IMG/VR virus record: IMGVR_UViG_3300031911_000001
Location: 37,881 to 101,880 of that record
DNA: 64,000 nt
Source: a virus
Taxonomy: Duplodnaviria; Heunggongvirae; Uroviricota; Caudoviricetes
Reading direction: 5' to 3' (one strand)
In this document: one piece after another, positions 15,298 through 55,092 of the stretch
Layout of the letters: each line of letters begins with the position of its first letter
How positions within the stretch are numbered: position 1 is the stretch's first letter
Translations under genes and position numbers: made by a program
Notes under the pieces: generated by a model
Told to the model about the DNA's origin: nothing
Seen by the model: only the letters and a program-made list of their open reading frames with translations
The model's database searches: none

Positions 15298-15356
15298 TTG
15301 ACGGTCGTCATGAACCTCCCTACAATAGGACATCAACAACCACTTGGAGAAGTGAA
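15298..15356 (+). promoter_or_regulatory. conserved early promoter + leader, copy 1 (TTGACG-N17-TACAAT, leader CATCAACAACCACTTGGAGAAGTGAAATG)
   Basis: Seen in sequence. Shares the core CCACTTGGAGAAGTGAAATG with 8 other sites. Confidence 0.7.
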
Positions 15357-15563
15357 ATGCGCAAATTCAAAATGACTATCCTCTGTTCTGTCCAGGTCGA
15401 GGTTCTTGCAGAACTGACCGAAGACGGCACCTTCGTCAGACATGTGGTTGGCGTCAAACATCCGACTGCCGAAGAGGTCATGGCGGCACTAGAAACCCAT
15501 CCCGGTGTCGGTGGCTTAGAAGAGCTCGACTCCCACTACGCCAACGCAAAGGATTTCCAATGA
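15357..15563 (+). CDS. small early protein (68 aa)
   Basis: ATG directly follows the conserved leader. Confidence 0.65.
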   Translation: MRKFKMTILCSVQVEVLAELTEDGTFVRHVVGVKHPTAEEVMAALETHPGVGGLEELDSHYANAKDFQ

Positions 15564-15760
15564 AAACCATGTACTTGGTCCTTGACGGCCTGACCCCGGA
15601 AGACTTCATCCTTCAGCACGTCATACAGACATACGAATTGGATGAGGATCAGGCCAAGGCCATCATCCAAGGACTGAAGGACAACGGGAGTTACCAAGAC
15701 CTTTACAATAGGGCGGTCGAGGTAATCGACGGATTTAAAAAGATGATGGAGGTAAAGTGA
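15560..15760 (+). CDS. small early protein (66 aa)
   Basis: ATGA overlap with previous gene. Confidence 0.6.
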   Translation: MKTMYLVLDGLTPEDFILQHVIQTYELDEDQAKAIIQGLKDNGSYQDLYNRAVEVIDGFKKMMEVK

Positions 15761-15969
15761 TGAGCAAGACCAAACTTCGCCGAGGAATCGGCCACATGGG
15801 CCGTGTCTTCCAATACGGCACCGCAGTCGGCCCGAATGGTGCATCTCTTAGCATCCGGGCTTCTGTAAAGATGCAGGAGGATAACGCCCGAAAGCTGAAC
15901 AAGCTGCCAGAGTTCAAACGTGCTGCAAAGAAGCGCCAACGTCGTGATGACTTCCGGATGGCATCATGA
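15757..15969 (+). CDS. small basic early protein (70 aa)
   Basis: GTGATG overlap with previous gene. Lys/Arg-rich C-terminus. Confidence 0.6.
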   Translation: MMSKTKLRRGIGHMGRVFQYGTAVGPNGASLSIRASVKMQEDNARKLNKLPEFKRAAKKRQRRDDFRMAS

Positions 15970-16442
15970 ACTCCTGTGAAGAACTAGTCCGTGGCATGGA
16001 AGCCGTGGCTGGACCGGGTAATGTGCCCATCTCGTATCGCATCATGGCCCAGTACGGCCGTGAGTACAAGATCAAGACCAACCACCTGACCGGCAAAGGC
16101 CGCAAGCAGGAATGCTACCGGAACTCCGAGAACCTCGTGACGTTCCAGAGCCTCGATGACCGATACGTCTACGTCGAAGGCTACGCCATGAAGCCGGGGT
16201 TGATTCCCTTGTCCCATGCGTGGGTCGTAGACCTGAACGATGGCAAGGCAATCGATCCTACGTGGCCTGAGGGCGATGGCATCTACTTCGGGGTGCCATT
16301 CGACAACGAGTTCGTCAACGACTTCTCGATCAGTGTCGGCTGCTACGGAATCTTCGAGAACCTCTACAAGTTGCACCGTGCTCGCAACATCAAGCGGCTC
16401 GAAGACGTCATCAAATACCTCGAGTCAGGTATCGTCAAGTAA
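15966..16442 (+). CDS. hypothetical protein (158 aa)
   Basis: ATGA overlap with previous gene. Confidence 0.65.
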   Translation: MNSCEELVRGMEAVAGPGNVPISYRIMAQYGREYKIKTNHLTGKGRKQECYRNSENLVTFQSLDDRYVYVEGYAMKPGLIPLSHAWVVDLNDGKAIDPTWPEGDGIYFGVPFDNEFVNDFSISVGCYGIFENLYKLHRARNIKRLEDVIKYLESGIVK

Positions 16443-16489
16443 GTAAACCACGGGTCATTGAAGGCCCGTCATTTACCATACAGGTTCAA

Positions 16490-16579
16490 GGGCGGTTGGC
16501 AGAGAGGCCGATTGCAGGGGGTTGCTAACCCCTAGGCTCCGCAAGGGGTCCACAGGTTCAAATCCTGTACCGCCCGCCA
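16490..16579 (+). tRNA. tRNA-Ser (GCT), type II
   Basis: Acceptor gggcggt/accgccc (perfect)+G+CCA, anticodon stem ggggg/cccct with loop ttGCTaa, long variable arm, T-arm cacagg-ttcaaat-cctgt. 90 nt. Lies outside the main array. Confidence 0.8.
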
Positions 16580-16595
16580 ACTCTACGGAACCTGT

Positions 16596-17018
16596 ATGTC
16601 AGCACTCTACAATCACATCCGAGCCGAATGGGTCGCTGCCCGACAAGGCAGAATCGAGCTCAAGGCGACTGCTCTCGGCACCATCATTTCTGATCTGGAC
16701 CGCATTGCCAAGGACGAGCAACGTGAGGTCCGAGACTCAGACGTCTTCAATCTGGCACTGAAGTACATCAAGGGCATCAACGAGACCTTGGATGCTCTGC
16801 TGAAGAACGCACCGTCGGACGTGCGCATCCCCCGAATTCAGTTCGAGAAGACGATCTACCAAGAGCTCCTGCCGTCTCAATTGACGCCAGACGAGATCAA
16901 GAAGATCATCCAGCAAAACCACCTGACCGGTGTCAAGGACATCATGACGTACTTCAAGCACCACTACGTTGGCCGGTACGATGGAAAGGTACTCTCAGAA
17001 ATCGCCAGGACAGCATGA
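16596..17018 (+). CDS. hypothetical protein (140 aa)
   Basis: ORF. Confidence 0.6.
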   Translation: MSALYNHIRAEWVAARQGRIELKATALGTIISDLDRIAKDEQREVRDSDVFNLALKYIKGINETLDALLKNAPSDVRIPRIQFEKTIYQELLPSQLTPDEIKKIIQQNHLTGVKDIMTYFKHHYVGRYDGKVLSEIARTA

Positions 17019-17326
17019 AATCAGCCATTATCTACACGCAGGCCGGAGACCGTACCTACCGGTTCATCTGGTACGAAGACCTGCTTAAACGGGCGCAAAT
17101 CGGCTTCCGTGTAGTAGAGCTCCCACGTCTCGAGAACCAGTGTCAGGGGTGCATCCTGAAGTGGGACTTCTCGGTCAGAGGCAACCACATGGATGACTAC
17201 GGTAATCGCATGGGTTGCACCGCTGACCAGTACCGAGACTTGACATACGTCATTGGATGGGATCACAGCTGCGGAACAACTGAAATCAGATCAGAGAAGC
17301 AACTCAAAGAATGGATCGAATCATGA
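17015..17326 (+). CDS. hypothetical protein (103 aa)
   Basis: ATGA overlap with previous gene. Confidence 0.6.
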   Translation: MKSAIIYTQAGDRTYRFIWYEDLLKRAQIGFRVVELPRLENQCQGCILKWDFSVRGNHMDDYGNRMGCTADQYRDLTYVIGWDHSCGTTEIRSEKQLKEWIES

Positions 17327-17793
17327 AGCAAATCTACGTCGCAGGCTTCGCCTTCAATGGTGATCGTGTCCTGCTCATCGAGAAGACGAAGCCTGAATGG
17401 CAGGCAGGGAAGCTCAACGGTATTGGTGGCAAGGTCGAGAAGTACGACCACGACGAATACGCCGCCCAATGCCGTGAGTTCTGGGAAGAGACTGGCATCA
17501 GCACCAATGCCCTCAATTGGACCAAGTTCGACGTCGAACGATTCGATCATGCCGAAGTCCATTGGTTCTTCAACCCGGTTGTCAACATTGACTCATTCAT
17601 CAAGACTACCGAGGAGCAACCGGTGATTGTTCGAGTCAGTGACGTCATCGGTGAAGGATTCAATCCATACGACGATGGCAAGATGTGTCTCTATAACTTG
17701 CCCTATCTGCTACTAAAAGCATGGACTTTCGTCTTCAATGGTGGTCCTCACCATCAGATTCCCAATCTTAAGGCCTCATACTACACTGCGTAG
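17311..17793 (+). CDS. Nudix hydrolase (T4 NudE-like)
   Basis: Nudix box GGKVEKYDHDEYAAQCREFWEETGI. Confidence 0.75.
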   Translation: MDRIMKQIYVAGFAFNGDRVLLIEKTKPEWQAGKLNGIGGKVEKYDHDEYAAQCREFWEETGISTNALNWTKFDVERFDHAEVHWFFNPVVNIDSFIKTTEEQPVIVRVSDVIGEGFNPYDDGKMCLYNLPYLLLKAWTFVFNGGPHHQIPNLKASYYTA

Positions 17794-17829
17794 CAATTGT
17801 AAAGTGTAAGTAAGCAGGGAGATACCAAT

Positions 17830-18465
17830 ATGAAACTAATCAACAAACTGGTGTTCGCTGCTATTATGCTTGTCACTTGCACTGCCGTGACTACACAGCA
17901 ACTGCAGCAGACCGAGAAGATCATTGAGACGGAGCAGTCTACGATTGCTGTCGTTCGTGACAAGATTGACAAGTCCATCACCGGTGACAAGCTGGTGTTC
18001 GGCAGTGTGGTTCACCTGAAGAAGCAGGTCGGCGTAGACAACATCCGGATCATCCAGCGCAAGGGTGCGTACAACTGTGCCCGGGGTGAGTTCATCATCA
18101 AGGAAGTTACCGCCTTTGACAAGTCCGGTAACGAGGTCAAGGATGAAAACATCAAGACCGATGTGATCATGACGCCGAACATCGACACCGTCAAGCGAGA
18201 GTTCAAGTTCATGTGTGCCGATCCTACACCGGCTCCTGTAGTAGAACCACCTGCACCGCCGCCTCAGATCATCACGGTTCCGATCCCTGTGATCATTGAA
18301 GCCGTCGAGGAAGCACCGAAGAAGGCCCGTCCGAAGCCAGCAGTGAAGAAGCCTGAACCGGCACCGAAGCCAATCGCCAAAGCCCCTGAGGCACCCAAGG
18401 TCAAGGCTCCTGTTGTTCAAAAACAACCACTCAACGCCGGACAACGTACTGATCTGGTAGACTAA
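17830..18465 (+). CDS. secreted/membrane protein with Pro/Ala/Lys-rich repetitive C-terminus
   Basis: N-terminal hydrophobic segment. C-terminal PTPAPVVEPPAPPP...KKPEPAPKPIAKAPEAPKVKAP low-complexity repeats. Confidence 0.6.
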   Translation: MKLINKLVFAAIMLVTCTAVTTQQLQQTEKIIETEQSTIAVVRDKIDKSITGDKLVFGSVVHLKKQVGVDNIRIIQRKGAYNCARGEFIIKEVTAFDKSGNEVKDENIKTDVIMTPNIDTVKREFKFMCADPTPAPVVEPPAPPPQIITVPIPVIIEAVEEAPKKARPKPAVKKPEPAPKPIAKAPEAPKVKAPVVQKQPLNAGQRTDLVD

Positions 18466-18472
18466 TGCACAT

Positions 18473-18553
18473 GGGGGAGTGACGGGAATCCTTGGTATAC
18501 CTCGGGGCCTCAAAAGCTCTGGTCTGTGGGTTCAAGTCCCACCTCCCCTACCA
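18473..18553 (+). tRNA. tRNA with Leu anticodon CAA, Leu-like D-arm, discriminator A, but short (5-nt) variable arm (second class-I-like tRNA-Leu)
   Basis: Acceptor gggggag/ctcccct+A+CCA, anticodon stem ggggc/gctct with loop ctCAAaa, variable ggtct, T-arm gtggg-ttcaagt-cccac. Confidence 0.5.
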
Positions 18554-18560
18554 AGATATG

Positions 18561-18588
18561 AAATAGACGCTCCGGCGTCTATTTCGTT
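18561..18588 (+). terminator. rho-independent terminator
   Basis: aaatagacgc-tccg-gcgtctattt followed by cgtt. Confidence 0.55.
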
Positions 18589-18613
18589 GATGAATCGGTG
18601 TTAAAGTCTGCTC

Positions 18614-19162
18614 ATGCCACTGACAAAAGTACCCGCCAAGATTCGCAAGAAGGTTGAGGCTCGTATCCAATGGACCCTCGATTCGCTGGCCTTCCTGGCT
18701 CCTCGGAGCATCCCCCGCTACAAGATCACCGCCACCTATGACATAGAAGGTACGGCCGCAGGCTATGCCATCGACAAGACCGGTGTCGTCGAGCTCAACC
18801 CGATCCTGCTCATAGAGAATGTCGATGAGTTCATCAAGCAGATCGTTCCGCACGAGGTCGTCCATATCATCGTCGGTAGGCTGTGGAAGGATGCCGCCTT
18901 TCATGGTCCCCAGTTCACGCGACTCATGCAGATTCTGGGTCTGCCAGTCTCATGCTTCCATACCTTTGATACCGACCGCTGTAAGCAGGCCGACCCCGAC
19001 GTCTTCGTCTACCGTTGCATGTGTCAGCACACCACCAGACACGAGGTGACCGAGCGTACTCACAATATGAGGCAAAAGAGGCCCATCACTTGTAAACTCT
19101 GTCAACATCCACTACAATACAGCCACACACGTCAACTGAGGAAAAATCATGGAACTATTTGA
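18614..19162 (+). CDS. SprT-like zinc metallopeptidase domain protein
   Basis: HEVVHIIV (HExxH) plus C-terminal CxxC...CxxC zinc ribbon. Confidence 0.6.
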   Translation: MPLTKVPAKIRKKVEARIQWTLDSLAFLAPRSIPRYKITATYDIEGTAAGYAIDKTGVVELNPILLIENVDEFIKQIVPHEVVHIIVGRLWKDAAFHGPQFTRLMQILGLPVSCFHTFDTDRCKQADPDVFVYRCMCQHTTRHEVTERTHNMRQKRPITCKLCQHPLQYSHTRQLRKNHGTI

Positions 19163-20522: not shown

Positions 20523-20525
20523 TCC

Positions 20526-20699: not shown

Positions 20700-20821
20700 A
20701 TCGCAAACTGATGAAGGTCCTCATCCTCGTGACCATCCCGATTTGGGTTGTCCCTGCTGGCGTGATTCTTCTTGGCAGGATGGCATGGGAAGACATCAGT
20801 GAATGGGTCGATTCTTTCTAA
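20696..20821 (+). CDS. small membrane peptide (41 aa)
   Basis: MNRKLMKVLILVTIPIWVVPAGVILLGRMAWEDISEWVDSF. ATGA overlap. Confidence 0.3.
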   Translation: MNRKLMKVLILVTIPIWVVPAGVILLGRMAWEDISEWVDSF

Positions 20822-20828
20822 GAAACAC

Positions 20829-20887
20829 TTGACGGTGCCTTTCAATTCGTTATAATTGAGGCACCATAAACCACTTGGAGAAGTGAA
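20829..20887 (+). promoter_or_regulatory. conserved early promoter + leader, copy 2 (TTGACG-N16-TATAAT...CCACTTGGAGAAGTGAAATG)
   Basis: Seen in sequence. Confidence 0.7.
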
Positions 20888-21028
20888 ATGAAAGTCATCT
20901 ACACACTCAAGCGCCCCGGCGCACCTGTCTCCAAAGTCTTCCGTAGCACGTGCCGCTTCGAGACTTTTCTGTTCACGGCACTTGGCTACACGGTTCGCAA
21001 GACCGAAGTCCTTCACAAGGAGTTTTGA
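20888..21028 (+). CDS. small early protein (46 aa)
   Basis: MKVIYTLKRPGAPVSKVFRSTCRFETFLFTALGYTVRKTEVLHKEF. Directly after the conserved leader. Confidence 0.55.
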   Translation: MKVIYTLKRPGAPVSKVFRSTCRFETFLFTALGYTVRKTEVLHKEF

Positions 21029-22143: not shown

Positions 22144-22385
22144 AGCTGGACACCCTCATCCCCATCGGAGCCCTGCTCTCGATTATCGGCGTTGCCGGCA
22201 TTGTGTACCTCGAGAAGGAACACCCGATCCAATGCCTCGACATGGCAAAGGTCAAGAGCATCAACCGGGTCATCCATCGGTCAGCTGAGATCGAGTTCAC
22301 TGATGGCAGAATCGTGACGCTCCAACAGCCGTCCATTCGTCCGGGTGACAACTACTGCGTCAAACATGCAAGGCGGTGGGATTGA
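22140..22385 (+). CDS. small membrane protein (81 aa)
   Basis: ATGA overlap. Hydrophobic N-terminus. Confidence 0.55.
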   Translation: MKLDTLIPIGALLSIIGVAGIVYLEKEHPIQCLDMAKVKSINRVIHRSAEIEFTDGRIVTLQQPSIRPGDNYCVKHARRWD

Positions 22386-22858
22386 TGACTACGAAGATCG
22401 AATCATTCTCAGGTGAGTACGCTTTCCTCTCGAACTTCTGGGACGTTCGGGTGGAGTACGATGGCGGGTGGTTCAGTAGCGTAGAACATGCCTATCAGGC
22501 AGCGAAATACCCGAAAGAGGCCCGTTCCGTGTTCCGGAATGGTATTACCCCGGGACAGGCGAAACGCCTTGGTGGTGCCGCAGAGTTGCCGTGGGATTGG
22601 GAACACAAGAAGATCGAGATCATGACCCGGTTGGTCCTACAGAAGTTCAGGAACAACAACCCGCTCAAATTCTTGCTTTTGTCTACCGGCGATGCCACCC
22701 TCATCGAGGGCAACCACTGGGGAGACCGGTTCTGGGGCCAGTGTGGCGGAACCGGTAAGAACCATCTTGGTCGCATCCTGATGTACGTCAGGACGGTGCT
22801 CCGAAACGAAGAGACCCTCAGCTACTTCTTTACTGAGGAATCCCCCGTTGAAGACTAG
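22376..22858 (+). CDS. NADAR-domain protein (YbiA-like N-glycosidase / ADP-ribose-processing family)
   Basis: GEYAFLSNFW...VEHAYQAAK...GQAKRLG...WGD...GKNHLGRILMYVR matches the YbiA/NADAR signature. Confidence 0.7.
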   Translation: MGLMTTKIESFSGEYAFLSNFWDVRVEYDGGWFSSVEHAYQAAKYPKEARSVFRNGITPGQAKRLGGAAELPWDWEHKKIEIMTRLVLQKFRNNNPLKFLLLSTGDATLIEGNHWGDRFWGQCGGTGKNHLGRILMYVRTVLRNEETLSYFFTEESPVED

Positions 22859-29675: not shown

Positions 29676-30368
29676 ATGTCCAATGTCATTCTGAGTCTCG
29701 TGTCTCCCGAAGGTACTGTGCGCGTCGATTTCATCGAGGGTGAAAACTCCGGTGACATGCTGCAGAAGGTCGAACAGGCCCTGACCGAACATCCCCTGAT
29801 CCCCAAGCTGGGTCGTGGATCGGTCAAGGACATGATCTACGGTCGCAAGACCACGGTCAGCGGCTGGCACGTCGAGAAGGACGGCAAGAACCTCGCAGAC
29901 GGCAGCAAGTCGGTGCCCAATTCGATCCCGGTGACGGTGATCGGTGCGGTTGCTGATGGTACGGTGGCAACGACCCCCGATGCAGGCAAGGAAGCAACGA
30001 AGCCGGCCGACACGCTGCCTTCGAGCCCCGAGGCCTCCACCGTGAAGCACGCTGCCAAGAAGACCCGCAAGCCGCGTACCGCCAAGACGACTGCTGCTCC
30101 GGCCGCTGTCAAGACGGGTCGCCGCGAGAAGGTCTACAAGCTCGGTCCCAAGGTGGCCGAAATGACCAGCCGTGGAATGATCGCCAAGATCGTCGAACTG
30201 GTCAAGCAGGGCAAGAACACGAAGTCGCAGATCATCGCGGCCCTGCCCGGCATGAACAAGTCGACCATCCAACACGAAATCTGCATGGCTGGTCCGGCTT
30301 TCCGCAACTACATCGCCATCGACGAAGAAGCGACGGCGAAGGCGGCCCAAGAAAGCCAGACCGTCTGA
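29676..30368 (+). CDS. hypothetical protein (230 aa) with Lys/Ala-rich central region
   Basis: ATG 29676 after AAGGAG RBS (track ORF begins at TTG 29670). Confidence 0.6.
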   Translation: MSNVILSLVSPEGTVRVDFIEGENSGDMLQKVEQALTEHPLIPKLGRGSVKDMIYGRKTTVSGWHVEKDGKNLADGSKSVPNSIPVTVIGAVADGTVATTPDAGKEATKPADTLPSSPEASTVKHAAKKTRKPRTAKTTAAPAAVKTGRREKVYKLGPKVAEMTSRGMIAKIVELVKQGKNTKSQIIAALPGMNKSTIQHEICMAGPAFRNYIAIDEEATAKAAQESQTV

Positions 30369-30547: not shown

Positions 30548-31384
30548 ATGAAGCGTAATCTTTCTTTCCTCGTGGCAGTGGCCACACTGGCAATCTCGTC
30601 TGCAGCCTTTGCCACTCCCGGCAACAACGGCAATGGCGGTGGTGGTTGCGGCAACGGCCAAACGACAAACGGTTGCCCAGGCAATCAGCCCGGCCCTCAA
30701 GGCCCGCAGGGTCCACAAGGTCCAGTCGGTCCACAAGGTCCAGTCGGTCCACAAGGTCCGCAGGGTCCGGTAGGTGCAACTGGTCCCCAAGGCCCGCAAG
30801 GAGCAACGGGAGCAACTGGCGCCACCGGCGCTACGGGTGCCCAAGGCGTTGCTGGTCGTGACGGAACCAACGGTACGAACGGCCGTGATGGTGTCAATGG
30901 AACCAATGGCGTCAACGGTACGAACGGGACCAATGGTCGAGACGGTGCGGCCGGACGTGATGGAGCCGATGGTGTTGCTGGTGCCACTGGCGCTACCGGT
31001 GCTCAGGGCGTCCAAGGCGAACGCGGCCTGCAGGGTGAAAACGCCCCGGATGCTGTGACCGTCCAACAGATGACCAGCACGGTGGCAGCGGCTCAAGCCC
31101 AAACCCAGATGCAGATCAACGGGCTCCGTGACGAAATCCAAGGCGTTGCCAAGGCTGCCTATTCGGGTGTTGCCGCAGCGATGGCCCTGCAGATGCCTTC
31201 GATCAATCCGAACAAGCCGGATGCACTGGTGATGCGCATGGGCGTGGGCACCTACAAGGGCCAGTCGGCGGTGGGCATCAGCTTCCGTCGAAGCAACAAG
31301 GCCGGTGACTGGTCGGTGACGGGTGGCGTGTCCCATACTTCCCACGGTACGGCGGCTGCTCTGGGCATTGAACACTCCTTCTAA
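30548..31384 (+). CDS. secreted collagen-like (Gly-X-Y) protein with YadA-like C-terminal beta-barrel anchor (trimeric-autotransporter-like)
   Basis: Signal peptide [22 protein letters not shown]. About 40 GXY triplets ([19 protein letters not shown]...[10 protein letters not shown]). C-terminal [15 protein letters not shown]...[47 protein letters not shown] ending in Phe, like YadA/TAA membrane anchors. Confidence 0.65.
30655..31045 (+). repeat. tandem Gly-X-Y coding repeats (collagen-like triplets)
   Basis: Repeated ggtccacaaggtccagtcggtcca... units within the CDS. Confidence 0.8.
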
Positions 31385-32794: not shown

Positions 32795-32820
32795 AAGCCA
32801 CCTTCGGGTGGTTTCTTGTT
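32795..32820 (+). terminator. rho-independent terminator
   Basis: aaagccacc-ttcg-ggtggtttc followed by ttgtt. Confidence 0.65.
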
Positions 32821-32879
32821 GCGTGCCGTTATCAATGAACATATAATTGTGACATCGAAACCCACTTGGAGAAGTGAAG
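32819..32879 (+). promoter_or_regulatory. conserved early promoter + leader, copy 3 (TTGCGT-N18-TATAAT...CCACTTGGAGAAGTGAAGATG)
   Basis: Seen in sequence. Confidence 0.6.
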
Positions 32880-33086
32880 ATGATTACCCTTAACGCACAA
32901 AACAGGTTCAACAACCACACGGTCACCGGTGCTACCGAACTTGAATGTATCAAGGCGATGGGTGATCTCATGGACCTTGCTTTTTCTCATCGTAAGGTCT
33001 GGTCTTCTTACAACAAGATTTTCACCAGTGTTCGCCGATTCCACAATTGGATGACCAAGGCAAACTGGACCGTCACCTGGAGTTAA
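32880..33086 (+). CDS. small early protein (68 aa)
   Basis: ATG 32880 after the leader (track starts at GTG 32874). Confidence 0.55.
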   Translation: MITLNAQNRFNNHTVTGATELECIKAMGDLMDLAFSHRKVWSSYNKIFTSVRRFHNWMTKANWTVTWS

Positions 33087-33635: not shown

Positions 33636-33911
33636 ATGGGATACGTCAACGATCTCTCTGCCGCCGACTTCAAGTCTTTGCTTGCAGGCATGGTGGAATC
33701 CAACGACCGGCATCACAGACCGACGGCATCGGCAATCCATCTGAGCAAGTACCTCCAACTCCTGGATGGGAAGCTGACGCTAGAGGACTTCAAGGCAAAG
33801 GCGAACCTCTACTCTATCGTCGACCTTCGCCGGTTGAAGAAGGATGGTCTTTTCATCGACGTTTACCTGCGCATGGTCAAAGAATTGAAGAAAGTTGTTG
33901 ACGACCGTTGA
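33636..33911 (+). CDS. hypothetical protein (91 aa)
   Basis: ORF, TGATG overlap. Confidence 0.5.
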   Translation: MGYVNDLSAADFKSLLAGMVESNDRHHRPTASAIHLSKYLQLLDGKLTLEDFKAKANLYSIVDLRRLKKDGLFIDVYLRMVKELKKVVDDR

Positions 33912-33956
33912 TATCGTCAATACAATAAGACATCAACAACCACTTGGAGAAGTGTA
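33898..33956 (+). promoter_or_regulatory. conserved early promoter + leader, copy 4 (TTGACG-N17-TACAAT...CATCAACAACCACTTGGAGAAGTGTAATG)
   Basis: Seen in sequence. Overlaps the 3' end of the previous gene. Confidence 0.7.
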
Positions 33957-34442
33957 ATGTCAATGACTTTCGCGGCGGCGTACGCAATGGTGATGGGCAC
34001 GGCCTCAATTTCTACGGCCCAGATCGACACCCAGCAACATCACTGCCTTGCTGAGGCAATCTACTTCGAAGCCGGCAATCAAAGCTACTTCGGGAAGATT
34101 GCAGTGGCAAACGTGATCATGAACCGGGCCAAGTCCTCGGGAAAGACGGTCTGTGAGGTCATCAAGCGGCCCAAGCAGTTCAGCTACCGTCAGATGACGG
34201 CCTTCAAGAAGCAGAACATCAAGGTCGATCAGCCCAAGGTGAAGATTGCGGTGGTAAATTCTATCACGGTAGCAAAGGCAGCGCTGAAGAAAAACCTGCC
34301 AGACCTGACCCGTGGGGCACGGTTCTATTTGAACCCGGCCGCAGCGACTGACTTCTCATGGTCTTCCAAGTTCACGAAGACTGTAGTGATCGGTGATCAT
34401 CACTTCTACATTGATCCCAAGGCAAAGAACGGCAACGCATGA
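33957..34442 (+). CDS. SleB/CwlJ-family cell-wall hydrolase with N-terminal signal/anchor
   Basis: CLAEAIYFEAGNQSYFGKIAVANVIMNR...QFS matches the Hydrolase_2 (SleB) signature. N-terminal hydrophobic segment. Confidence 0.65.
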   Translation: MSMTFAAAYAMVMGTASISTAQIDTQQHHCLAEAIYFEAGNQSYFGKIAVANVIMNRAKSSGKTVCEVIKRPKQFSYRQMTAFKKQNIKVDQPKVKIAVVNSITVAKAALKKNLPDLTRGARFYLNPAAATDFSWSSKFTKTVVIGDHHFYIDPKAKNGNA

Positions 34443-34652: not shown

Positions 34653-34713
34653 TTGACTCCTCCGGTGGTTGTCCCTACAATAGGAACATCAACAACCACT
34701 TGGAGAAGTGAAC
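34653..34713 (+). promoter_or_regulatory. conserved early promoter + leader, copy 5 (TTGACT-N17-TACAAT...CATCAACAACCACTTGGAGAAGTGAACATG)
   Basis: Seen in sequence. Confidence 0.7.
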
Positions 34714-35073
34714 ATGGCCCACTACAGCAAACTAGTTTTCGTCTACGGCAACTGGACCTCGACCGACAAGCAAAGCGCCGAGATGGACGTGCTGGCTGCC
34801 AAATACAACGGCAAGCACACGGGTGGGATGCGTGGATGCTACGGCACAATCGATTTCAAGACCAAGAAAGAGGCAGAAGATGCGGTTCACGCAATCAACA
34901 ATGGTCGCAAGTTCACTGCCATTGGTGCCTTTGACCGCTCGGTGAAGATGCACCAAGAAATGTACGACGGCATGGTTGCACGTAATGGTGCTGACTACGC
35001 CAACGAAAAGATGGACATGTTCGCAAAGAGCACCTACCCGGGCGTCGGTGCCCTGATCAAGCGGGTCAAGTGA
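34714..35073 (+). CDS. hypothetical protein (119 aa)
   Basis: ATG 34714 after the leader (track starts at GTG 34708). Confidence 0.6.
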   Translation: MAHYSKLVFVYGNWTSTDKQSAEMDVLAAKYNGKHTGGMRGCYGTIDFKTKKEAEDAVHAINNGRKFTAIGAFDRSVKMHQEMYDGMVARNGADYANEKMDMFAKSTYPGVGALIKRVK

Positions 35074-37468: not shown

Positions 37469-38539
37469 ATGGTTGATTTCGCAGCACTACGTCAACGCAA
37501 GGGTACAAACTTCGATGCCCTGCAAAAGTCACTGGAAAAATCGAGCTCCGGTGGTGGCTTCAAGAAAGATGAACGCATCTGGAAGCCAAAGGAAAACAAG
37601 GACGGCAAGTCGTCCAGCATCATTCGATTCCTCCCCATCCCCGCAGTTGACTTCGATCTGGTCGCACAGGGCAAGTTCCCCGAGACTGACCTGACGCCCC
37701 TGATCAAGGTGGTCCGTCACCAGTTCCAAGGCCCGAACGGCTGGTACGTTGAGAACTCACTGCAGACCTTCGGTGAAGCCTGCCCGGTCCGTGAACACGA
37801 TGGCCCGATCTGGGGTGACGCCAAGAAGCGCAACGACAAGCCTCTGCAGGAAGTGCTCAAGAAGCGTCTCCCGAAGCAGGACGAGTACGTCGGCATCTAC
37901 GTCATCAAGGACGGCACCAGCCCCGAGAACAACGGTGGCGTGTTCCTGTACCAAGTACCGGCAACGATCAAGAAGATGATCGACCTTGCGAACAAGCCAG
38001 AGTTCGAGAACCAAGTCGCATTCGACCCGTTCGATATCTGGGAAGGCAAGGACCTGATCCTGAACATCACCTACGAAACGAAGGCGATCAACGGCAAGGA
38101 CGCTCGCGTACCGAACTGGACCAACGTGGCGTGGGCACCGGCTCCGAGCGCTTTCCTGAACGGCAACGAAAAGGAAATCGAAGCCGTGTGGCGCAAGCAA
38201 TACTCGCTGCTTGAGTTCCATGATCGCAGCCCGGAAGCCAAGAAGTTCAAGACCTACGACGAGCTCAAGGAAAAGTTCTGCAAGGTGATGAACCTTGACG
38301 AGAACTACAATCCCCTGAAGGGTTCTGCGGCTCGTGCTGGTACTACAGCTGGTGACTTCGTCGGTGGGCAAGAGTCTGCTCCTGCAGCAAGCGCACCTGC
38401 GGCCCCTGCACCGGCCCCGAGCGCACCTCCTGCGGCTACCCCTAGTGCTGCACCTTCAGCAGCCCCTGCGGCCGCTCCTGTAGCTTCGGCGGATGACTCA
38501 ATGGCTGAGTTTGAACGTCTGTTGAACGGCGGCAACTAA
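37469..38539 (+). CDS. single-stranded DNA-binding protein (T4 gp32 homolog) with Ala/Pro-rich C-terminus
   Basis: SIIRFLPIP, CPV...H zinc site and IYVIKDGTSPENNGGVFLYQ align to T4 gp32 ([29 protein letters not shown]). Confidence 0.8.
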   Translation: MVDFAALRQRKGTNFDALQKSLEKSSSGGGFKKDERIWKPKENKDGKSSSIIRFLPIPAVDFDLVAQGKFPETDLTPLIKVVRHQFQGPNGWYVENSLQTFGEACPVREHDGPIWGDAKKRNDKPLQEVLKKRLPKQDEYVGIYVIKDGTSPENNGGVFLYQVPATIKKMIDLANKPEFENQVAFDPFDIWEGKDLILNITYETKAINGKDARVPNWTNVAWAPAPSAFLNGNEKEIEAVWRKQYSLLEFHDRSPEAKKFKTYDELKEKFCKVMNLDENYNPLKGSAARAGTTAGDFVGGQESAPAASAPAAPAPAPSAPPAATPSAAPSAAPAAAPVASADDSMAEFERLLNGGN

Positions 38540-45714: not shown

Positions 45715-45933
45715 TTACCAGTAGCGGCCCTTGGCGATGCATTTATCGAGCTTGTCCTTGTAATTCCGCATGTGGACAAGGTCGTCCTCCGTGATTCCTT
45801 CCTTGGCGCCACCGGCAATGGTCACAGCCAGAGCGTTACTGCTGTAGACAAAGTTGAACTTTGCATTGACTTTGGAGGCGCCTTCTTCGAGGGCAATCTT
45901 TTCGGCTTCTTTTGCGGTAAGGGTTTTGGGCAT
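45715..45933 (-). CDS. small early protein (72 aa)
   Basis: MPKTLTAKEAEKIALEEG... ATG follows the conserved leader. Track ORF extended by read-through of the leader. Confidence 0.6.
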   Translation of the reverse strand: MPKTLTAKEAEKIALEEGASKVNAKFNFVYSSNALAVTIAGGAKEGITEDDLVHMRNYKDKLDKCIAKGRYW

Positions 45934-45992
45934 TTCACTTCTCCAAGTGGGTTTCGTTGTCCCAATTATACATGCGGGGGTGAGGCCGTCAA
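45931..45992 (-). promoter_or_regulatory. conserved early promoter + leader, copy 6 (TTGACG-N16-TATAAT...CCACTTGGAGAAGTGAAATG)
   Basis: Reverse-complement of 45931-45992. Confidence 0.7.
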
Positions 45993-46004: not shown

Positions 46005-46508
46005 ATGGCCTCAAGATATCTTCAAGGGAAGTACAATCCCTCGTACCCAAACAAATACCGTGGCGATCTCAAAGACATTGTCTTCCGGTCGTCGTGGGAA
46101 CTCGTTGCGTTCAAGTTCTGTGATTTTGCACCGGACGTAATCGCATGGTCATCTGAAGGTGTTGTCATTCCCTACCGGGGAGTCGATGGCCGCATGCACC
46201 GCTACTTCGTTGATCTCTGGATCATGTGTAGGCAGGGCGATGGTACGACCAAGAAGTTCCTCGTCGAGATCAAGCCAGCCTCAAAGAAGCTGCCACCTCG
46301 TAAGGGGATCACCAAGCGGGATGACGTCTTCCTACGTGAAGTCATTGAGTATCAGACCAACCAGCTGAAGTGGGAGGCCGCAGAGGCCTACTGCAAGAAG
46401 AATGATTGGGGCTGGATCATCTGGACCGAGGAACAGTTGCTGCCCCCGCTGCAGAAGTTCAAGGCGTCCAGACCAAAGAAGCTGGCGCCTCGTAGGGTCA
46501 AACGTTGA
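46005..46508 (+). CDS. hypothetical protein (167 aa)
   Basis: Plus-strand ORF divergent from the 45933 gene. Confidence 0.55.
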   Translation: MASRYLQGKYNPSYPNKYRGDLKDIVFRSSWELVAFKFCDFAPDVIAWSSEGVVIPYRGVDGRMHRYFVDLWIMCRQGDGTTKKFLVEIKPASKKLPPRKGITKRDDVFLREVIEYQTNQLKWEAAEAYCKKNDWGWIIWTEEQLLPPLQKFKASRPKKLAPRRVKR

Positions 46509-50885: not shown

Positions 50886-51507
50886 CGTAGCCTCTGAATG
50901 TAAGCGAGATTCTCGGTCCGCAGTTGTGCTTGCTGGACTTCGGAATTCGGTGTTGGTGGGTGTCCTGCATCCCCGGTTGCATCAGACACAGACTCCCGTG
51001 ACCAAGGGTCAGCTTGGTCACCTCCACTGACTGCCTGGCAAGCTCTTCGTGTTGCTTTTCATCAAAGAACTCGGCTTGCTTGGCAATGAGCTCGACGTAC
51101 TCTTTTCGAGACCTGAACCAGATTTCACGCTCTTCGCCAAGCGTGACGATAGCGATGGGCCGGTCATCGTCCATTTCGGGGCTGTCATCGGAGTGCCAGC
51201 CGAGTTGGTCTTTTCCGTCCACGTAGCCGTTGAGGAAACATACTTCGAACCGCTCATTGGTGATCTCCTCAAGCAATACCCTGATGCCACGGATGATGAG
51301 AGTCATCGGCTGAGGCCAATACACATGAGCATCTGGCCCCTTGTCGTATACATAGGGTGCCTTGACGTCGTTGCAGTAGTACTCACGACGAGGCTTCCCG
51401 GTCTTCACCCAGTCGAGTTTGTCCCAAAGCTCTTTGAAAGCAATGTCGGCATCCTCCTGGCCAAGCCAGTTAGGGATGTAGTTGATCGGTGGGTAGAATG
51501 GGTTCAT
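50812..51507 (-). CDS. alkB: AlkB-family Fe(II)/2-oxoglutarate dioxygenase (alkylation repair)
   Basis: HSDD...IAIVTLGEEREIWF...HRIP...RISLTFR motifs. Confidence 0.7.
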   Translation of the reverse strand: MNPFYPPINYIPNWLGQEDADIAFKELWDKLDWVKTGKPRREYYCNDVKAPYVYDKGPDAHVYWPQPMTLIIRGIRVLLEEITNERFEVCFLNGYVDGKDQLGWHSDDSPEMDDDRPIAIVTLGEEREIWFRSRKEYVELIAKQAEFFDEKQHEELARQSVEVTKLTLGHGSLCLMQPGMQDTHQHRIPKSSKHNCGPRISLTFRGYVDPRIQDRTNMERQKVSPNISLPD

Positions 51508-51901
51508 GGTCGGTCGGTTCTCCGTTATCCCCGTTGCGGTACAGTGTACCAGAGTTCATGTCGAGTCCTTGGTGTTTTGCCCCATGGCAGAGACCGACAC
51601 AGACATGGTCGTGTGAGTGGCATCCCCAGTTGCGGTTCTTGAGGATTTTCATTTGCATGATCTCTCCTGCGCTGGGCAAGCAACCATAGTCCTGAGCCTT
51701 TGCTGCATGCTCGTTCAGGGGCTCATTGAAGGGGCAGGTTTCGCATGTGCCCTTCAGGCCGCCGTGTACAGGATCGGTAGGCACCAGAAACACCGTATCC
51801 GTCCACGAAAGGGGCTTTCTAGGCAGGTTCGTGACGAGGTGGATGGGGTACTGCTTCGCAAGCTCCCGCACGGTCTGGTAGAGTTCTTCGTCGAGGAGCA
51901 T
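51470..51901 (-). CDS. Cys/His-rich hypothetical protein (143 aa)
   Basis: Start MLLDEELYQ (Met71 of track ORF 51470..52111). CETCPF...CHSHDHVCVGLCHG. Confidence 0.45.
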   Translation of the reverse strand: MLLDEELYQTVRELAKQYPIHLVTNLPRKPLSWTDTVFLVPTDPVHGGLKGTCETCPFNEPLNEHAAKAQDYGCLPSAGEIMQMKILKNRNWGCHSHDHVCVGLCHGAKHQGLDMNSGTLYRNGDNGEPTDHEPILPTDQLHP

Positions 51902-51902
51902 T

Positions 51903-53105
51903 TCATTCCTTGGCTGCGATCTTGCAGCGAGTGACGTAGGTCTGATTATGGTCGCGACCAGCACGGTCAGTCCACGTCTTGTGGAACTTGACTGTACCAG
52001 AAAGGAGAACCTCGTCTCCGGCTTCAAGGTTGAACTTGCCGCCGGTAGACCAGACGAACTCGTGGTTCGCTCCGTCCCTGAAGGTGTAGAGATATTGGCT
52101 ACCGTAGGCACCGTCGAAGGCAGCGACGCGCAGGAACTTCACCGGTACGAGCTTCAGTCGATCCTTCGGCTCACCATAGAACTCCGAGGGCACGAACTCC
52201 TTGACTTCCTTGGTGTCTCTGATCCACATGTTCACGGCCGCACAGAGGATGCCCAGTTTGCGGGGCCGTACACCGATACCGGCAGAAATCGTCTGCTTGA
52301 CGTTGTAGATGAAGTCGCTGGCGTTCTCGTCCTTCTTCTCGAAGTAGGCAAAGAACTCATCGATCTGCTTCTTGTCCTCGTCGGTCACCTCGAGGTGTTT
52401 GCCCCGTGGGGAGTGACTGGCGTACAGTACGTCAGACACCTTGCTGGAAGTGGTGTCGTAGTATTCGAGCTCACCGTTGCTCTCTTCGACCTTCTTGCGG
52501 CTGATGAAGCCCTTGTTCCTGATCTGATCGATGATTGCCTTGAAGGACTCGTCGAAGTAGAAAAGGAAGGTCGGTCGCGGTCCCTTCTCGAATTCGTCCT
52601 CGTCCTTGGTGAAGACGACGATGCCGCTGACCATCTCAAACCATGCGGCCAGCGTCTCGGGGTTCTTGTGGCCGAGGAAGTCCTTGACGCACGAGGAGCC
52701 GACTTGTTTGAGACCGCCTTGCGTCTCGTGCTGGACGAAAAAGTAGCGGTTGCGCTTGCGACTGTGGCCGCAGTGATCGCAGATGTCACGGGTGCGGTAT
52801 TCGGGAGGAAGATCAAACCCGGGGACCGAGCGAATCTCGTCGCCGTCTTCCTGGATGTCCCGCTTGGCTTTGAAGTGCCAGTCGGCCAGCTTGGGAGTGA
52901 CGCCCTCGATGATGAAGTGATGGTAGACCTCAATCCAGCGATAAATCTCGCCATCTTCGAGTTGCCTCGACTTCTCTTCTTGGGTGATCTCCCAGAGGTT
53001 GAAGGTGGGAGCCGGGAGGTCGAGTCGCTTGCAGACCTTGGCAAGCTGCGCAAGGTGGGCCTCGAGGGACGGCACATTGCGCTCGGGAATCTTGAACATG
53101 GGCAT
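51903..53105 (-). CDS. hypothetical early protein (400 aa)
   Basis: ATG 53105 directly follows the conserved leader. Internal CDHCGH motif. Confidence 0.65.
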   Translation of the reverse strand: MPMFKIPERNVPSLEAHLAQLAKVCKRLDLPAPTFNLWEITQEEKSRQLEDGEIYRWIEVYHHFIIEGVTPKLADWHFKAKRDIQEDGDEIRSVPGFDLPPEYRTRDICDHCGHSRKRNRYFFVQHETQGGLKQVGSSCVKDFLGHKNPETLAAWFEMVSGIVVFTKDEDEFEKGPRPTFLFYFDESFKAIIDQIRNKGFISRKKVEESNGELEYYDTTSSKVSDVLYASHSPRGKHLEVTDEDKKQIDEFFAYFEKKDENASDFIYNVKQTISAGIGVRPRKLGILCAAVNMWIRDTKEVKEFVPSEFYGEPKDRLKLVPVKFLRVAAFDGAYGSQYLYTFRDGANHEFVWSTGGKFNLEAGDEVLLSGTVKFHKTWTDRAGRDHNQTYVTRCKIAAKE

Positions 53106-53165
53106 GTCACTTCTCCAAGTGGTTGTTGACAGGGCCAGTATATGACCTTGTCAACAGGGTGTCAA
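53103..53165 (-). promoter_or_regulatory. conserved early promoter + leader, copy 7 (TTGACA-N17-TATACT...TCAACAACCACTTGGAGAAGTGACATG)
   Basis: Reverse-complement read. Confidence 0.7.
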
Positions 53166-53169
53166 CGAC

Positions 53170-53694
53170 TCATTTGATGCCGTGGTGTTGCTCGATTGCT
53201 TCGGCGAACCCCTTGGCGACGAGGAAGATTGGAGTCCCCCGCTTTGCACCGGTGGCTTGCTCGATCTGCCAATCATCCATCGGCGTAGACAGGAGTTTGA
53301 AGTTTCCCATCAATCGTTCGATGGCCACGCCGGCCTGATATTTTGCCAGTGAATCCGGCCAGCCTTTGATGATTGACTGCAGCAGGTCAAGGTCGTCTTT
53401 GCTGTTGAGCATCGTCGCGCCCAGATGCTGATTACCGAGAACCCTCAACTTCAGCCTTTGCATTGCTGCCAGTGCTTCATGCGGTGAGTCCGAGGCCTGT
53501 GCGTAGGCGCGAACGATGTTCCCGATCCACTGGAGGTCAGCATCGACCATGCTCTGCTGCATGTCGGCTTCGATGGCCTGACGCAATTGTTGAGCACACT
53601 GACGCAGGAATCCTGCTTGGTAGCCCATGTCTCCGATGTAGGATGCGTTCTCCCAATCATGGAGCAAGATGTCCATCTTCGATTCTGTTTTCAT
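53170..53694 (-). CDS. hypothetical protein (174 aa)
   Basis: ORF. Confidence 0.55.
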   Translation of the reverse strand: MKTESKMDILLHDWENASYIGDMGYQAGFLRQCAQQLRQAIEADMQQSMVDADLQWIGNIVRAYAQASDSPHEALAAMQRLKLRVLGNQHLGATMLNSKDDLDLLQSIIKGWPDSLAKYQAGVAIERLMGNFKLLSTPMDDWQIEQATGAKRGTPIFLVAKGFAEAIEQHHGIK

Positions 53695-53975
53695 TTCAGC
53701 ACCTTTTTCTTTCCGTCATACCACTCAATCGGGCGGTGGATTTTGCCCATACGGTGAACCTTCCGGCAACGTGGGCAGGTGCCGTACAGGGTAGCATGCT
53801 CGCGGCCGATGCCATCGATCGGCCCGACACTGATCGTCATGTACTCGCCACCGGTAAAGACCTTCTCATTGGTCTTGTGCCCGAAGATCGAACAGAACAA
53901 TTTCTTGAACCAGACGGTGTCCATGACGAAGATCAGTGTGACCAGGAAGGCCAGAATAACCATGATGAAAATCAT
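53691..53975 (-). CDS. small membrane protein (94 aa)
   Basis: Hydrophobic N-terminus. ATGA overlap. Confidence 0.5.
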   Translation of the reverse strand: MIFIMVILAFLVTLIFVMDTVWFKKLFCSIFGHKTNEKVFTGGEYMTISVGPIDGIGREHATLYGTCPRCRKVHRMGKIHRPIEWYDGKKKVLK

Positions 53976-53976
53976 T

Positions 53977-54759
53977 TCAGTTTCCGATCAGGATTGGCTT
54001 GGTGCCGGTGGGGGCGTTGACGCCACGAACATTGATGTCGACGTTGCGGCCGTCTTCTTGGCCTGCAGCATAGGCTTCTGCATTGCGGTGCGGGGTCGAC
54101 TTCTTCTTGGGATAGTCGAACTTGCCGTACTTCACGGTGATCGCGTTCTGCTTCACGACCATCAGGCTCGTACCGGTGGGCGACGCTGCCTTGGCTGCTT
54201 CCTGCTCGGCCAGCTTCTCCTGCACCTTCTCTTCGAGCACAGAGGTAATACCAAGGGCGCAACCCCGACGATACGACGCGACGGCGCCATCCTTAGTGGC
54301 CTTGGCGGTGTGGGCCTTGGCGAACTGCTTGGTCAGTTGGCGCACCTGAGTCAGCAGGTAGTCGAACATCCAGCCGGCGACCATGACGTCTTGCTTCATG
54401 CCGTAGAAGCGAATCCGCATTCCGTACTTGGGAACCTCGGTCATCCGGCAGCCGACGTCCATTAGGGCCGCAACCTGTGCGCCGATCCAACGGCACCAGA
54501 CCGGGATGGTCTTAGCCTTGTGGTCTTCGGAGACGCCCTCGGTGTGCGTGTATGCCTTGTGGTCGGAAGTGCAGAGATTGTCGCCAGCCTTCAGCGAGTT
54601 GACCAGAATGTCCTGATGGTCAAGCTGGTACTTCCGCATGATCTTTTCGGCCATCGCAGCGGCCGATGTTGCTTCATTGATGTCGCCGCGTCCGTCTTGG
54701 GCCATTGCCAAGAGCTTCTGCACACGACGCATTACACCTTCAAGATCATCAATTGCCAT
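53977..54759 (-). CDS. hypothetical early protein (260 aa)
   Basis: ATG 54759 follows the conserved leader (CCACTTGGAGAAGTAAAATG) but lacks a clear -35. Probably co-transcribed with 54790..55032. Confidence 0.6.
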   Translation of the reverse strand: MAIDDLEGVMRRVQKLLAMAQDGRGDINEATSAAAMAEKIMRKYQLDHQDILVNSLKAGDNLCTSDHKAYTHTEGVSEDHKAKTIPVWCRWIGAQVAALMDVGCRMTEVPKYGMRIRFYGMKQDVMVAGWMFDYLLTQVRQLTKQFAKAHTAKATKDGAVASYRRGCALGITSVLEEKVQEKLAEQEAAKAASPTGTSLMVVKQNAITVKYGKFDYPKKKSTPHRNAEAYAAGQEDGRNVDINVRGVNAPTGTKPILIGN

Positions 54760-54789
54760 TTTACTTCTCCAAGTGGTTGATGGTTTAGT

Positions 54790-55032
54790 TTAACCGAAAT
54801 AGAACGTGTCGCATTGCTTTTTGACACAGATTCTGATGGGGTCGATTTCGGCCTTGGTGCGATCACGAAGCATGTTGATCAGCTCTTGGGCTGCTTCAAT
54901 GACGTTCAGGGAGTCAATTCCGACTGCCGAGTTCACCGGGCACTCCAACACTTCCTTGGAGAGTACCGAGAGCCACTGTTCTGCTGTCTGGAGGCCGAGG
55001 TCTTCTTCGAGCCATGCTGCAAGGGTTGTCAT
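54790..55032 (-). CDS. small early protein (80 aa)
   Basis: Start MTTLAAW immediately after the conserved leader. Track ORF extended through the leader. Confidence 0.6.
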   Translation of the reverse strand: MTTLAAWLEEDLGLQTAEQWLSVLSKEVLECPVNSAVGIDSLNVIEAAQELINMLRDRTKAEIDPIRICVKKQCDTFYFG

Positions 55033-55092
55033 TTCACTTCTCCAAGTGGTTGTTGATGTACGTATTTTATTGATGCTTGTTTGCCTTGTCAA
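55030..55092 (-). promoter_or_regulatory. conserved early promoter + leader, copy 9 (TTGACA-N17-TAAAAT...CATCAACAACCACTTGGAGAAGTGAAATG)
   Basis: Reverse-complement read. Identical leader to copy 1. Confidence 0.7.

Follow-up and report, generated by a model that had tools for sequence, protein, structure and literature searches.

Promoter-early stem-loop (PeSL) cassettes occur in T4-like phages (Arbiol et al., 2010, PMC2839356; Comeau et al., 2014, PMC4122927), and start-associated sequences (SASs) occur in Cluster K mycobacteriophages (Pope et al., 2011, PMC3203893). Both kinds of element have thus already been described in phages, and their logic at the level of RNA is unexplained. Here we analyze a repeated cassette in a 64,000-nucleotide stretch (the window) of a Caudoviricetes phage (IMG/VR record IMGVR_UViG_3300031911_000001, positions 37,881 to 101,880). 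In this cassette a sigma70-type promoter is followed by a short leader that ends in a start codon, and the Shine-Dalgarno (SD) sequence GGAG occupies the tetraloop of a small predicted hairpin. The case is unusually clean, because this SD tetraloop belongs to a hairpin that is kept by compensatory change in five phages and is absent from their cultured sisters. In the literature searched, we came across no earlier account of an SD-tetraloop leader with covariation.

PeSLs are the closest kind of known system. Like PeSLs, the cassettes are present in many near-identical copies that join a sigma70-like early promoter to an SD sequence and a start codon, and they cluster in variable regions upstream of small ORFans, where they are a plausible substrate for modular shuffling. 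The two differ in that the stem-loop of a PeSL is a terminator located upstream of the promoter and its SD sequence is not described as structured, whereas here a covarying hairpin lies downstream of the promoter and holds the SD sequence in its loop, and the identity shared between copies covers about 30 nt. A terminator-like hairpin upstream of the promoter was found in only two of the 10 copies in the window (numbered c1 to c10 by position), namely c1 (15252-15269) and c3 (32798-32811). PeSLs are further characterized by mini-circle formation and by a location at the edges of indels or replacements that distinguish close relatives, and the only close relative at hand here is a 1.4-kb fragment (L127, below).

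The SAS is an asymmetric motif that contains the SD core, with the 13-bp consensus GGGATAGGAGCCC and a symmetric outer GGG/CCC, and it lies 3-7 bp before the ATG of non-structural genes, in one orientation and in 11-19 copies. The cassettes resemble SASs in placing an SD-containing, start-proximal, co-oriented motif before unrelated genes, and differ from them in sequence, host phylum, and phage type. In addition, SASs are conserved as sequence, with no stem covariation reported, and are not tied to promoters, whereas here a variable paired stem follows a sigma70-type promoter. The SAS consensus is not matched in our sequences, in which the motif is YU-GGAG-AR set in variable stems. At 14 nt, the element described here offers a simple test case for the function of start-associated motifs.

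We searched both strands of the window for the 20-mer CCACTTGGAGAAGTGAAATG with up to three mismatches, using 100 dinucleotide-preserving shuffles as background. Nine matches were obtained, at 15340, 20871, 32862, 33940, and 34696 on the plus strand and at 45931, 53103, 54757, and 55030 on the minus strand, against a chance expectation of 0. The search therefore recovered all nine copies listed by the initial annotation, five on the plus strand and four on the minus strand, and the pattern CCACTTGGAGAAGTG(N2-3)ATG also has nine copies in the window. The core had been described as invariant, which proved too strong: the 20-mer is exact in only four of the nine copies, carries one mismatch in three, and has an extra base before the ATG in two. 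The 14-mer hairpin CACTTGGAGAAGTG is exact in eight of the nine, and c8 has AAGTA in place of the 3' arm.

Five copies lie on the plus strand. The first, c1 (15298-15359), has the -35 element TTGACG (15298-15303), the -10 element TACAAT (15321-15326), the leader ACATCAACAAC, and the hairpin CACTT-GGAG-AAGTG (15341-15354), followed by an ATG at 15357 that opens a 68-aa ORFan. In c2 (20829-20890), TTGACG-N16-TATAAT precedes a hairpin at 20872-20885 and a 46-aa ORFan beginning at 20888. The promoter of c3 (32819-32882) pairs a weak -35, TTGCGT, with the -10 TATAAT; its leader is ACATCGAAACC, its hairpin is at 32863-32876, and the ATG of a 68-aa ORFan stands at 32880, 3 nt past the stem. The remaining two are c4 (33898-33959; TTGACG-N17-TACAAT; hairpin 33941-33954; ATG 33957), which precedes a 161-aa cell-wall hydrolase (Hydrolase_2, PF07486), and c5 (34653-34716; TTGACT-N17-TACAAT; hairpin 34697-34710; ATG 34714), which precedes a 119-aa open reading frame (ORF).

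On the minus strand, c6 (45931-45992) has TTGACG-N16-TATAAT, with the -35 starting at 45992, a hairpin at 45949-45936, and an ATG at 45933-45931 that opens a 72-aa ORFan. Copy c7 (53103-53165; TTGACA-N17-TATACT; hairpin 53121-53108; ATG 53105-53103) leads a conserved 400-aa protein (phrog_2319). Copy c9 (55030-55092; TTGACA-N17-TAAAAT; hairpin 55048-55035; ATG 55032-55030) leads an 80-aa ORFan, and the second gene behind it, 273 nt downstream, carries c8, which consists of a leader only (54757-54776): a 4-bp stem, ACTT/AAGT, around GGAG (54774-54763), an ATG at 54759-54757, and no recognizable -35 or -10, in front of a 260-aa DUF2786/DUF7168 protein. All nine ORFs behind c1-c9 are initiated by ATG, their products share no mutual sequence similarity, and every copy has the orientation of its gene.

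The tenth copy emerged when every GGAG in the window was scanned for perfect flanking inverted repeats, a scan that also recovered the nine copies already known. Copy c10 (60792-60850, minus strand) has the -35 TTGCAG (60850-60845), a 16-nt spacer, the -10 TATACT (60828-60823), the leader GACATCGAAAC, and the hairpin TGTTT-GGAG-AAACA (60809-60796), with its ATG at 60794-60792. Its leader (gacatcgaaac) is the same as that of c3. Its stem, TGTTT/AAACA, differs from CACTT/AAGTG by three base pairs, each altered compensatorily on both sides. No start codon follows either of the only two other GGAGs in the window whose flanks pair over 4 bp or more, and chance alone would yield about as many. A scan of 20 kb beside the window in the same 167.9-kb contig (ENA ERZ27248661 k141_721879) revealed three further copies, at positions 18663 and 19284 of flank segment L145 (the latter with the stem CACT/AGTG) and at position 1834 of flank segment L146, so that at least 13 copies are present in the 84 kb of genome examined.

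A strict promoter scan of the whole 64 kb (TTGAC-like -35, N16-18, TAnnnT) gave nine sigma70-type matches, seven of which belong to cassettes (starts at 15298, 20829, 33898, and 34653 on the plus strand and at 45992, 53165, and 55092 on the minus strand), and a separate promoter scan also ranked the cassette promoters at the top. Judged by consensus match, 8 of the 10 window copies have a good promoter, these being the seven strict matches and c10; the -35 is weaker in c3 (TTGCGT) and c10 (TTGCAG). The initial annotation had assigned a sigma70-type promoter to each copy, and this stands for most of them, with the weak -35 of c3 and the promoterless c8 as exceptions. A purine/A-rich stretch (GAAAGA, GAAGAAAG, or GAAAAGAG) lies about 15-25 nt upstream of the -35 in c1, c2, c4, c5, and c9; T4 early promoters have similar UP-like A-tracts. 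The c7 promoter (53137-53165, minus strand) also has features of its own: an inverted repeat, TTGACA...TGTCAA, brackets the -10, and a second TTGACA lies 11 nt upstream. These repeats could form a site for a DNA-binding regulator specific to that promoter.

When the nine upstream regions were aligned, conservation was confined to the -35 (TTGAC), the -10 (TAnAAT), and a block that runs from about the predicted transcription start to the start codon (ACATCAACAAC-CACTTGGAGAAGTG-AA-ATG); the 16-17-nt promoter spacers and everything past the ATG are unrelated. This upholds the proposal that the unit is a sigma70-type promoter with a conserved leader of about 25 nt ending in the start codon, and the confinement of identity to these parts, with unrelated spacers and ORFs, argues for selection rather than recent copying. 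The copies had also been described as dispersed 60-nt repeats. The unit is indeed repeated, but because the spacers are unrelated only about 30 nt are shared between copies; recombination between them is plausible by analogy with PeSLs. Two simple origins were rejected. The cassettes are not duplicated 5' ends of genes, the alternative that the annotation itself had named as fatal to its proposal, because resemblance among the copies ends at the ATG and the encoded proteins are unrelated; nor are they recent duplicates of a whole cassette, because the spacers are unrelated.

The -10 is followed at 6-7 nt by a conserved CA, where transcripts most likely begin (AUCAACAAC...), judging from the sequence; the 5' untranslated region would then be about 25 nt long, a length that fits entirely within the footprint of the 30S subunit. 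From 5' to 3', the leader consists of an A/C-rich unstructured segment (AUCAACAAC), a hairpin of 4-7 bp with a GGAG loop, 0-5 nt, and the AUG. The distance from hairpin to ATG is tightly fixed and the distance to the -10 varies, being 10 to 15 nt or less. For isolated leaders the hairpin has a predicted folding energy of -3 to -5.5 kcal/mol, independent of the stem sequence, and A/U-rich stems have 6-7 bp and G/C-richer stems 4-5 bp, which in this folding model suggests that stem length is tuned to composition and that stability is held at a marginal level. Three imperfect GGAG hairpins closed by A-U, at 21019, 29665, and 31429 on the plus strand (for example TTTAA-GGAG-TTTGA before a 230-aa ORF at 29676), precede promoter-proximal or operon-internal genes and may represent degenerate or weaker forms of the same element.

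Searches with the sequence itself found little outside this genome. The exact 20-mer had no match in IMG/VR, a 15-mer had only single chance matches there, and a pattern of 18 specified bases matched metagenomes and GTDB genomes only singly and about as often as expected by chance, with no multi-copy contig and with one exception. The exception, L127, is a 1.4-kb fragment from a near-identical strain variant of c7 (91% DNA identity) with the same leader, an identity that is not significant alone because only about 2.6 changes are expected in 30 nt. Both the inverted repeat and the second TTGACA of the c7 promoter are kept in L127. A search of IMG/VR for homologues of the c7 protein found nothing, and with Rfam 15 at the gathering score no leader matched a known RNA family, the only hits being tRNAs and a permuted transfer-messenger RNA (tmRNA). 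The 25-nt translation initiation region gtcaaCCACTTGGAGAAGTGAAATG, identical to the phage leader, does occur in Rhizobiales bacterium AFS084561 (L137, about 1380-1410, minus strand) and in a metagenome contig (L126, about 5410-5435, plus strand). In both it precedes an alpha/beta-hydrolase-like gene with a signal peptide and has no phage promoter, and it could have arisen by chance or by horizontal transfer, or it could point to the host.

Homologues of the c7 protein with 47-53% identity are encoded on four syntenic phage contigs, L139-L142, and these proved far more informative. All four contain sigma70-type promoters followed by a GGAG tetraloop in a perfect stem of 4-7 bp, 0-5 nt before an ATG, and together they contain at least 10 different stem sequences. 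L139 has ACACT/AGTGT, CTTT/AAAG, CACTT/AAGTG, and CTACTT/AAGCAG (with one mismatch), and L141 has CACTT/AAGTG (with the full ACATCAACAAC leader), TGTTTT/AAAACA, CACT/AGTG, and the loop variant TTTT-GGAT-AAAA. Four different stems are found within each of two single genomes: L140 (TTTGTTT/AAACAAA, TGTTTT/AAAACA, TTTCTA/TAGAAA, and TAAACT/AGTTTA) and L142 (CGTTT/AAACG, GAACT/AGTTC, GGTTT/AAACC, and CAAACT/AGTTTG). What appears as a repeat in one genome can thus be a structural class in its relatives.

Comparison of orthologous genes makes the same point. The hairpin precedes the c7 orthologue in all five phages, as CACTT/AAGTG, CTACTT/AAGCAG, TTTCTA/TAGAAA, CACT/AGTG, and GGTTT/AAACC. It precedes the DUF2786 gene (that of c8) in four of the five, three of them relatives out of four, with three different stems. 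A small membrane ORF located after the dCMP deaminase gene also has three different stems across phages. Apart from the c7 and DUF2786 ortholog groups, the genes led by hairpins are unrelated. Because the four relatives keep the hairpin with different stem sequences, we conclude that the structure itself is under selection, and the 5-bp hairpin with a GGAG tetraloop that had been proposed for the window is backed by compensatory changes both within the genome and across the four related phages. Tiny hydrophobic ORFs of 27, 38, 56, and 56 aa stand directly behind cassettes in the window (60794-60711, minus strand, behind c10), in L140 (after 9655), in L141 (after 99), and in L142 (after 3555); their sequences are unrelated, and in three phages they occupy the same syntenic spot after dCMP deaminase.

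The architecture is absent from the early region of Ralstonia phage RSP15 (50 kb scanned) and, despite synteny, from Delftia phage PhiW-14 (32 kb scanned), which are the nearest cultured phages, and also from L147 (36% GC) and L148 (65% GC), two contigs with more distant homologues of the c7 protein. The hairpin cassette is therefore a trait of one uncultured lineage.

We assessed the enrichment of these hairpins in a 141-kb set consisting of the window and L139-L142, which contains 958 GGAG sites. A perfect stem of at least 5 bp surrounds 21 of them, where about 0.94 would be expected; when the 3' flanks were swapped among GGAG sites in 1000 trials, the mean number of such stems was 1.2 and the maximum was 6. 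An ATG follows all 21 hairpins at a distance of -1 to +5 nt, and GGAG is the commonest tetraloop among perfect hairpins of at least 5 bp (21, versus 6 for the next). Hairpins with other loop sizes or with SD variants occur before ORF starts at background level only. For a stem-blind test, we took every strong promoter with a downstream GGAG, chosen by promoter only. A stem of at least 4 bp was present at 15 of the 18 promoter-proximal GGAG sites (shuffled mean 4.7), and none of 5000 shuffles reached 15; with identical stems collapsed, the count was 8 of 11 versus 1.29 expected, which none of 20,000 shuffles reached. A pair count on 28 sites (84.8% paired versus 55.6% shuffled, with 41 double-sided changes) is not relied on, because the sites were picked for perfect stems and the result is circular.

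Two properties of the element place it at the level of mRNA. A single genome contains several different stems, and this rules out both a sequence-specific DNA operator and any factor reading the stem sequence; recognition of the loop and of the overall shape is possible. The motif also keeps its position relative to the start codon and not to the promoter, since c8 is promoterless and the spacing from the -10 differs between copies, and it therefore belongs to translation initiation. On balance, we lean toward the interpretation that each copy is a portable early-expression cassette whose leader is a cis-acting, structured ribosome-binding site of marginal stability. A strong host-sigma70-type promoter, A-rich upstream of the -35, would drive a transcript with a short leader, and the hairpin would act in the mRNA, at translation initiation of the first cistron of early transcripts. 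Until the ribosome arrives, the SD sequence would be held in the loop and the A-rich spacer between SD and AUG would be paired, a fold that may shield the site from nucleases and from misfolding with the downstream coding sequence. So weak a hairpin could be opened by the 30S subunit at little cost, and the unit of promoter and ribosome-binding site would then work in front of any ORF. In quantitative experiments, de Smit and van Duin are reported to have found that translation of the MS2 coat gene suffers no reduction as long as the hairpin at its initiation site is weaker than about -6 kcal/mol. Such a cis-acting element would provide a natural design rule for a context-independent, nuclease-shielded ribosome-binding site of use in synthetic biology.

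Several observations weigh against a purely cis-acting role. When 70 nt of downstream sequence are included in the fold, the median equilibrium probability of the hairpin is only about 0.4, with values near 0 for c2, c6, and c7; the equilibrium fold does not uniformly favor the hairpin, which would therefore need to form kinetically, during transcription. The 4-nt loop cannot pair with the anti-SD sequence unless the stem opens, so the hairpin is at best neutral for initiation, which makes a regulatory role attractive. The loop is GGAG at 27 of 28 sites, although GGAG is found in the SD region of only about 28% of the window's other genes, and the closing pair is U-A at 27 of 28 sites even though A-U would lengthen the SD sequence. 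A conserved loop and closing pair above a free stem is the classic signature of a hairpin recognized by a protein. The lack of the element in the sister phages fits a clade-specific partner, and about half of the genome and most of the small ORFans are uncharacterized.

Recognition by a factor acting in trans, taking its repressor and RNase versions together, is for these reasons the main alternative, possible but tentative. In the repressor version, which by itself we consider rather doubtful, the hairpin is a translational operator: a phage or host RNA-binding protein would read the loop, the U-A closing pair, and the shape, and by covering the SD sequence would switch off or license the translation of all early first cistrons together. 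Besides the conserved loop and freely covarying stem, this version is favored by the restriction of the element to transcripts from early-type promoters and to one clade, by a preference for GGAG far beyond its use in other genes, and by a functional gap, since RSP15 has a RegA-like "translation repressor" for which no counterpart was found in this clade. Such an operator would be the functional equivalent of the targets of T4 RegA, of the MS2 and PP7 coat proteins, and of CsrA/Rsm. The operators of RegA, MS2, and PP7 are likewise small hairpins at initiation sites that allow coordinated shut-off (PMC1702504, PMC3014915). They differ from the present case in that no regA homologue was detected in the 84 kb examined and that the hairpin is not known to have a binding protein.

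CsrA/RsmA targets share with the cassettes a short hairpin that presents GGA in its apical loop and overlaps the SD sequence (PMC7366521). The cassettes provide one site per mRNA, whereas CsrA dimers typically bridge two, and no csrA was found among the scanned phage proteins. The CsrA consensus, A(N)GGA or CANGGANG, is not matched by the flanks Y-U-GGA-G-A-R. CsrA is often absent from the bacterial lineage hinted at by the permuted tmRNA. More generally, protein domain scans covering 84 of the 168 kb found no RegA, RegB, CsrA, KH, S1, cold-shock, or other RNA-binding domain, and tblastn with RegA of RSP15 gave no match. SD function, together with a general preference for an A-rich spacer, could also account for why the loop and the 3' arm are conserved.

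A broader form of this idea, which we put forward only as a tentative possibility, is that the GGAG-tetraloop hairpin is the operator of a structure-defined regulon for early translational control that replaces the functions of RegA and RegB. Whether a repressor that binds RNA, an endoribonuclease, or a modifier of ribosomes, the factor would recognize the hairpin by its loop and shape on every mRNA made by the host polymerase, and early translation would be switched off or licensed as a block in a PhiW-14-like lineage that apparently lacks RegA and RegB. If the hairpin were such a recognition site, it would define a new early shut-off system.

The RNase version, which we judge unlikely, holds that a RegB-like phage nuclease cuts the GGAG of early SD sequences, as T4 RegB does with the help of S1, so that early mRNAs would be inactivated at the early-to-middle transition, with the hairpin defining or gating the site. 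T4 RegB cuts inside GGAG, mostly in the SD sequences of early genes, with the target GGAGRAYARAA (PMC1702504), and the T4 RegB/S1 sites resemble the cassettes in that the GGAG of an early gene is followed by an A-rich tract (PMC1702504, PMC3014915). The consensus GGAGAAGUGAA matches 9 of the 11 positions of this target, all of the 3' arms are purine/A-rich, and GGAG is nearly invariant in the hairpins. The site used by RegB and S1 is single-stranded, however, and structured GGAGs in T4 are resistant (PMC1702504), whereas here the A-rich part is paired, target positions 5-9 being held in a hairpin of -4.7 kcal/mol. Non-cassette genes of the phage also use GGAG, and the proteins from the 84 kb contained no match to REGB_T4 (Pfam).

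It is very improbable that the cassettes are incidental repeats, that is, selfish or recombination-spread units of the PeSL type in which an inverted repeat was copied by accident. The nine copies first found in the window do share a leader, and the cassettes lie in variable regions before ORFans, as PeSLs do (PMC4122927, PMC2839356). The unrelated -35/-10 spacers show that they are not recent duplicates of a whole unit, and the stems of c10 and of the four relatives have changed yet stay paired; in our view these compensatory changes already refute the idea.

Most improbable of all is an element that acts on DNA or transcription (a palindromic operator, a boxB/N-like antitermination hairpin, or an N4-type hairpin promoter): the half-sites CACTT/AAGTG do lie 4 bp apart at about +10 to +24 of a strong promoter, and a 5-bp stem with a purine-rich loop also characterizes boxB, which lies close to where early transcripts start, but stem sequences vary within one genome, the motif is locked to the SD sequence and to the ATG (0-5 nt) even in the promoterless c8, each copy runs in the direction of its gene, the loop does not resemble GNRA, and, unlike the N4 virion RNA polymerase promoter, a DNA hairpin with a 5-7 bp stem and a 3-nt loop that lies upstream of the start and has no -35/-10, the cassettes have a canonical -35/-10 upstream, a hairpin downstream, and a 4-nt SD loop abutting the ATG.

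The gene content of the window is consistent with early expression of the genes behind the cassettes. It encodes topoisomerase II subunits, a class I ribonucleotide reductase, an ATP-dependent ligase, a gp32-type single-stranded DNA-binding protein (SSB), and a UvsW-type helicase, as well as tail tube and baseplate proteins, and a gene for a gp33 late-transcription coactivator is present. A T4-type program, with early promoters served by the host polymerase and gp33-dependent late transcription, is a reasonable inference from this set, and the description of the cassette genes as early fits it, the timing being deduced from gene content. The phage had been called T4-like, which is right in the broad sense of the superfamily; it is not a close relative of T4. 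No relative at the nucleotide level turned up when 19 kb of the window were compared by megablast with 50,697 phage records, and the identity of the SSB of the phage is 50% to RSP15, 46% to PhiW-14, and about 45% to Vi1-like Ackermannviridae. Gene order closely matches that of PhiW-14, relative to which the region between the RuvC-like gene and the gp33 gene, containing c3-c5, is expanded.

A tRNA island at 7555-18553 on the plus strand contains the 26 tRNA genes of the window and the tmRNA gene (10057-10469). The tmRNA is of the permuted, two-piece kind, as identified by ARAGORN (tag ANDAQMRIAA) and by Rfam RF04321 (61.9 bits versus a gathering score of 47); a permuted tmRNA encoded by a phage is unusual and may hint at the lineage of the host. 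The window also encodes QueC (62479-63159) and dCMP deaminase (60839-61378), both on the minus strand, and the relative L141 encodes PTPS (11243-11779). The presence of genes of the 7-deazaguanine (queuosine-precursor) pathway in the phage and its relatives suggests modified DNA bases. An accessory region encodes a 278-aa adhesin-like protein (30548-31384, plus strand) with collagen triple-helix repeats and a YadA-like membrane anchor (PF01391, PF03895), and an ORF with a TnsA-like N-terminal domain (Pfam) lies at 46194-46508 on the plus strand. Three further plus-strand genes encode a YqeY-like protein (16596-17018), a NUDIX hydrolase (17311-17793), and a NADAR-domain protein (22385-22858), of which the latter two could bear on RNA 5'-end or ADP-ribose metabolism.

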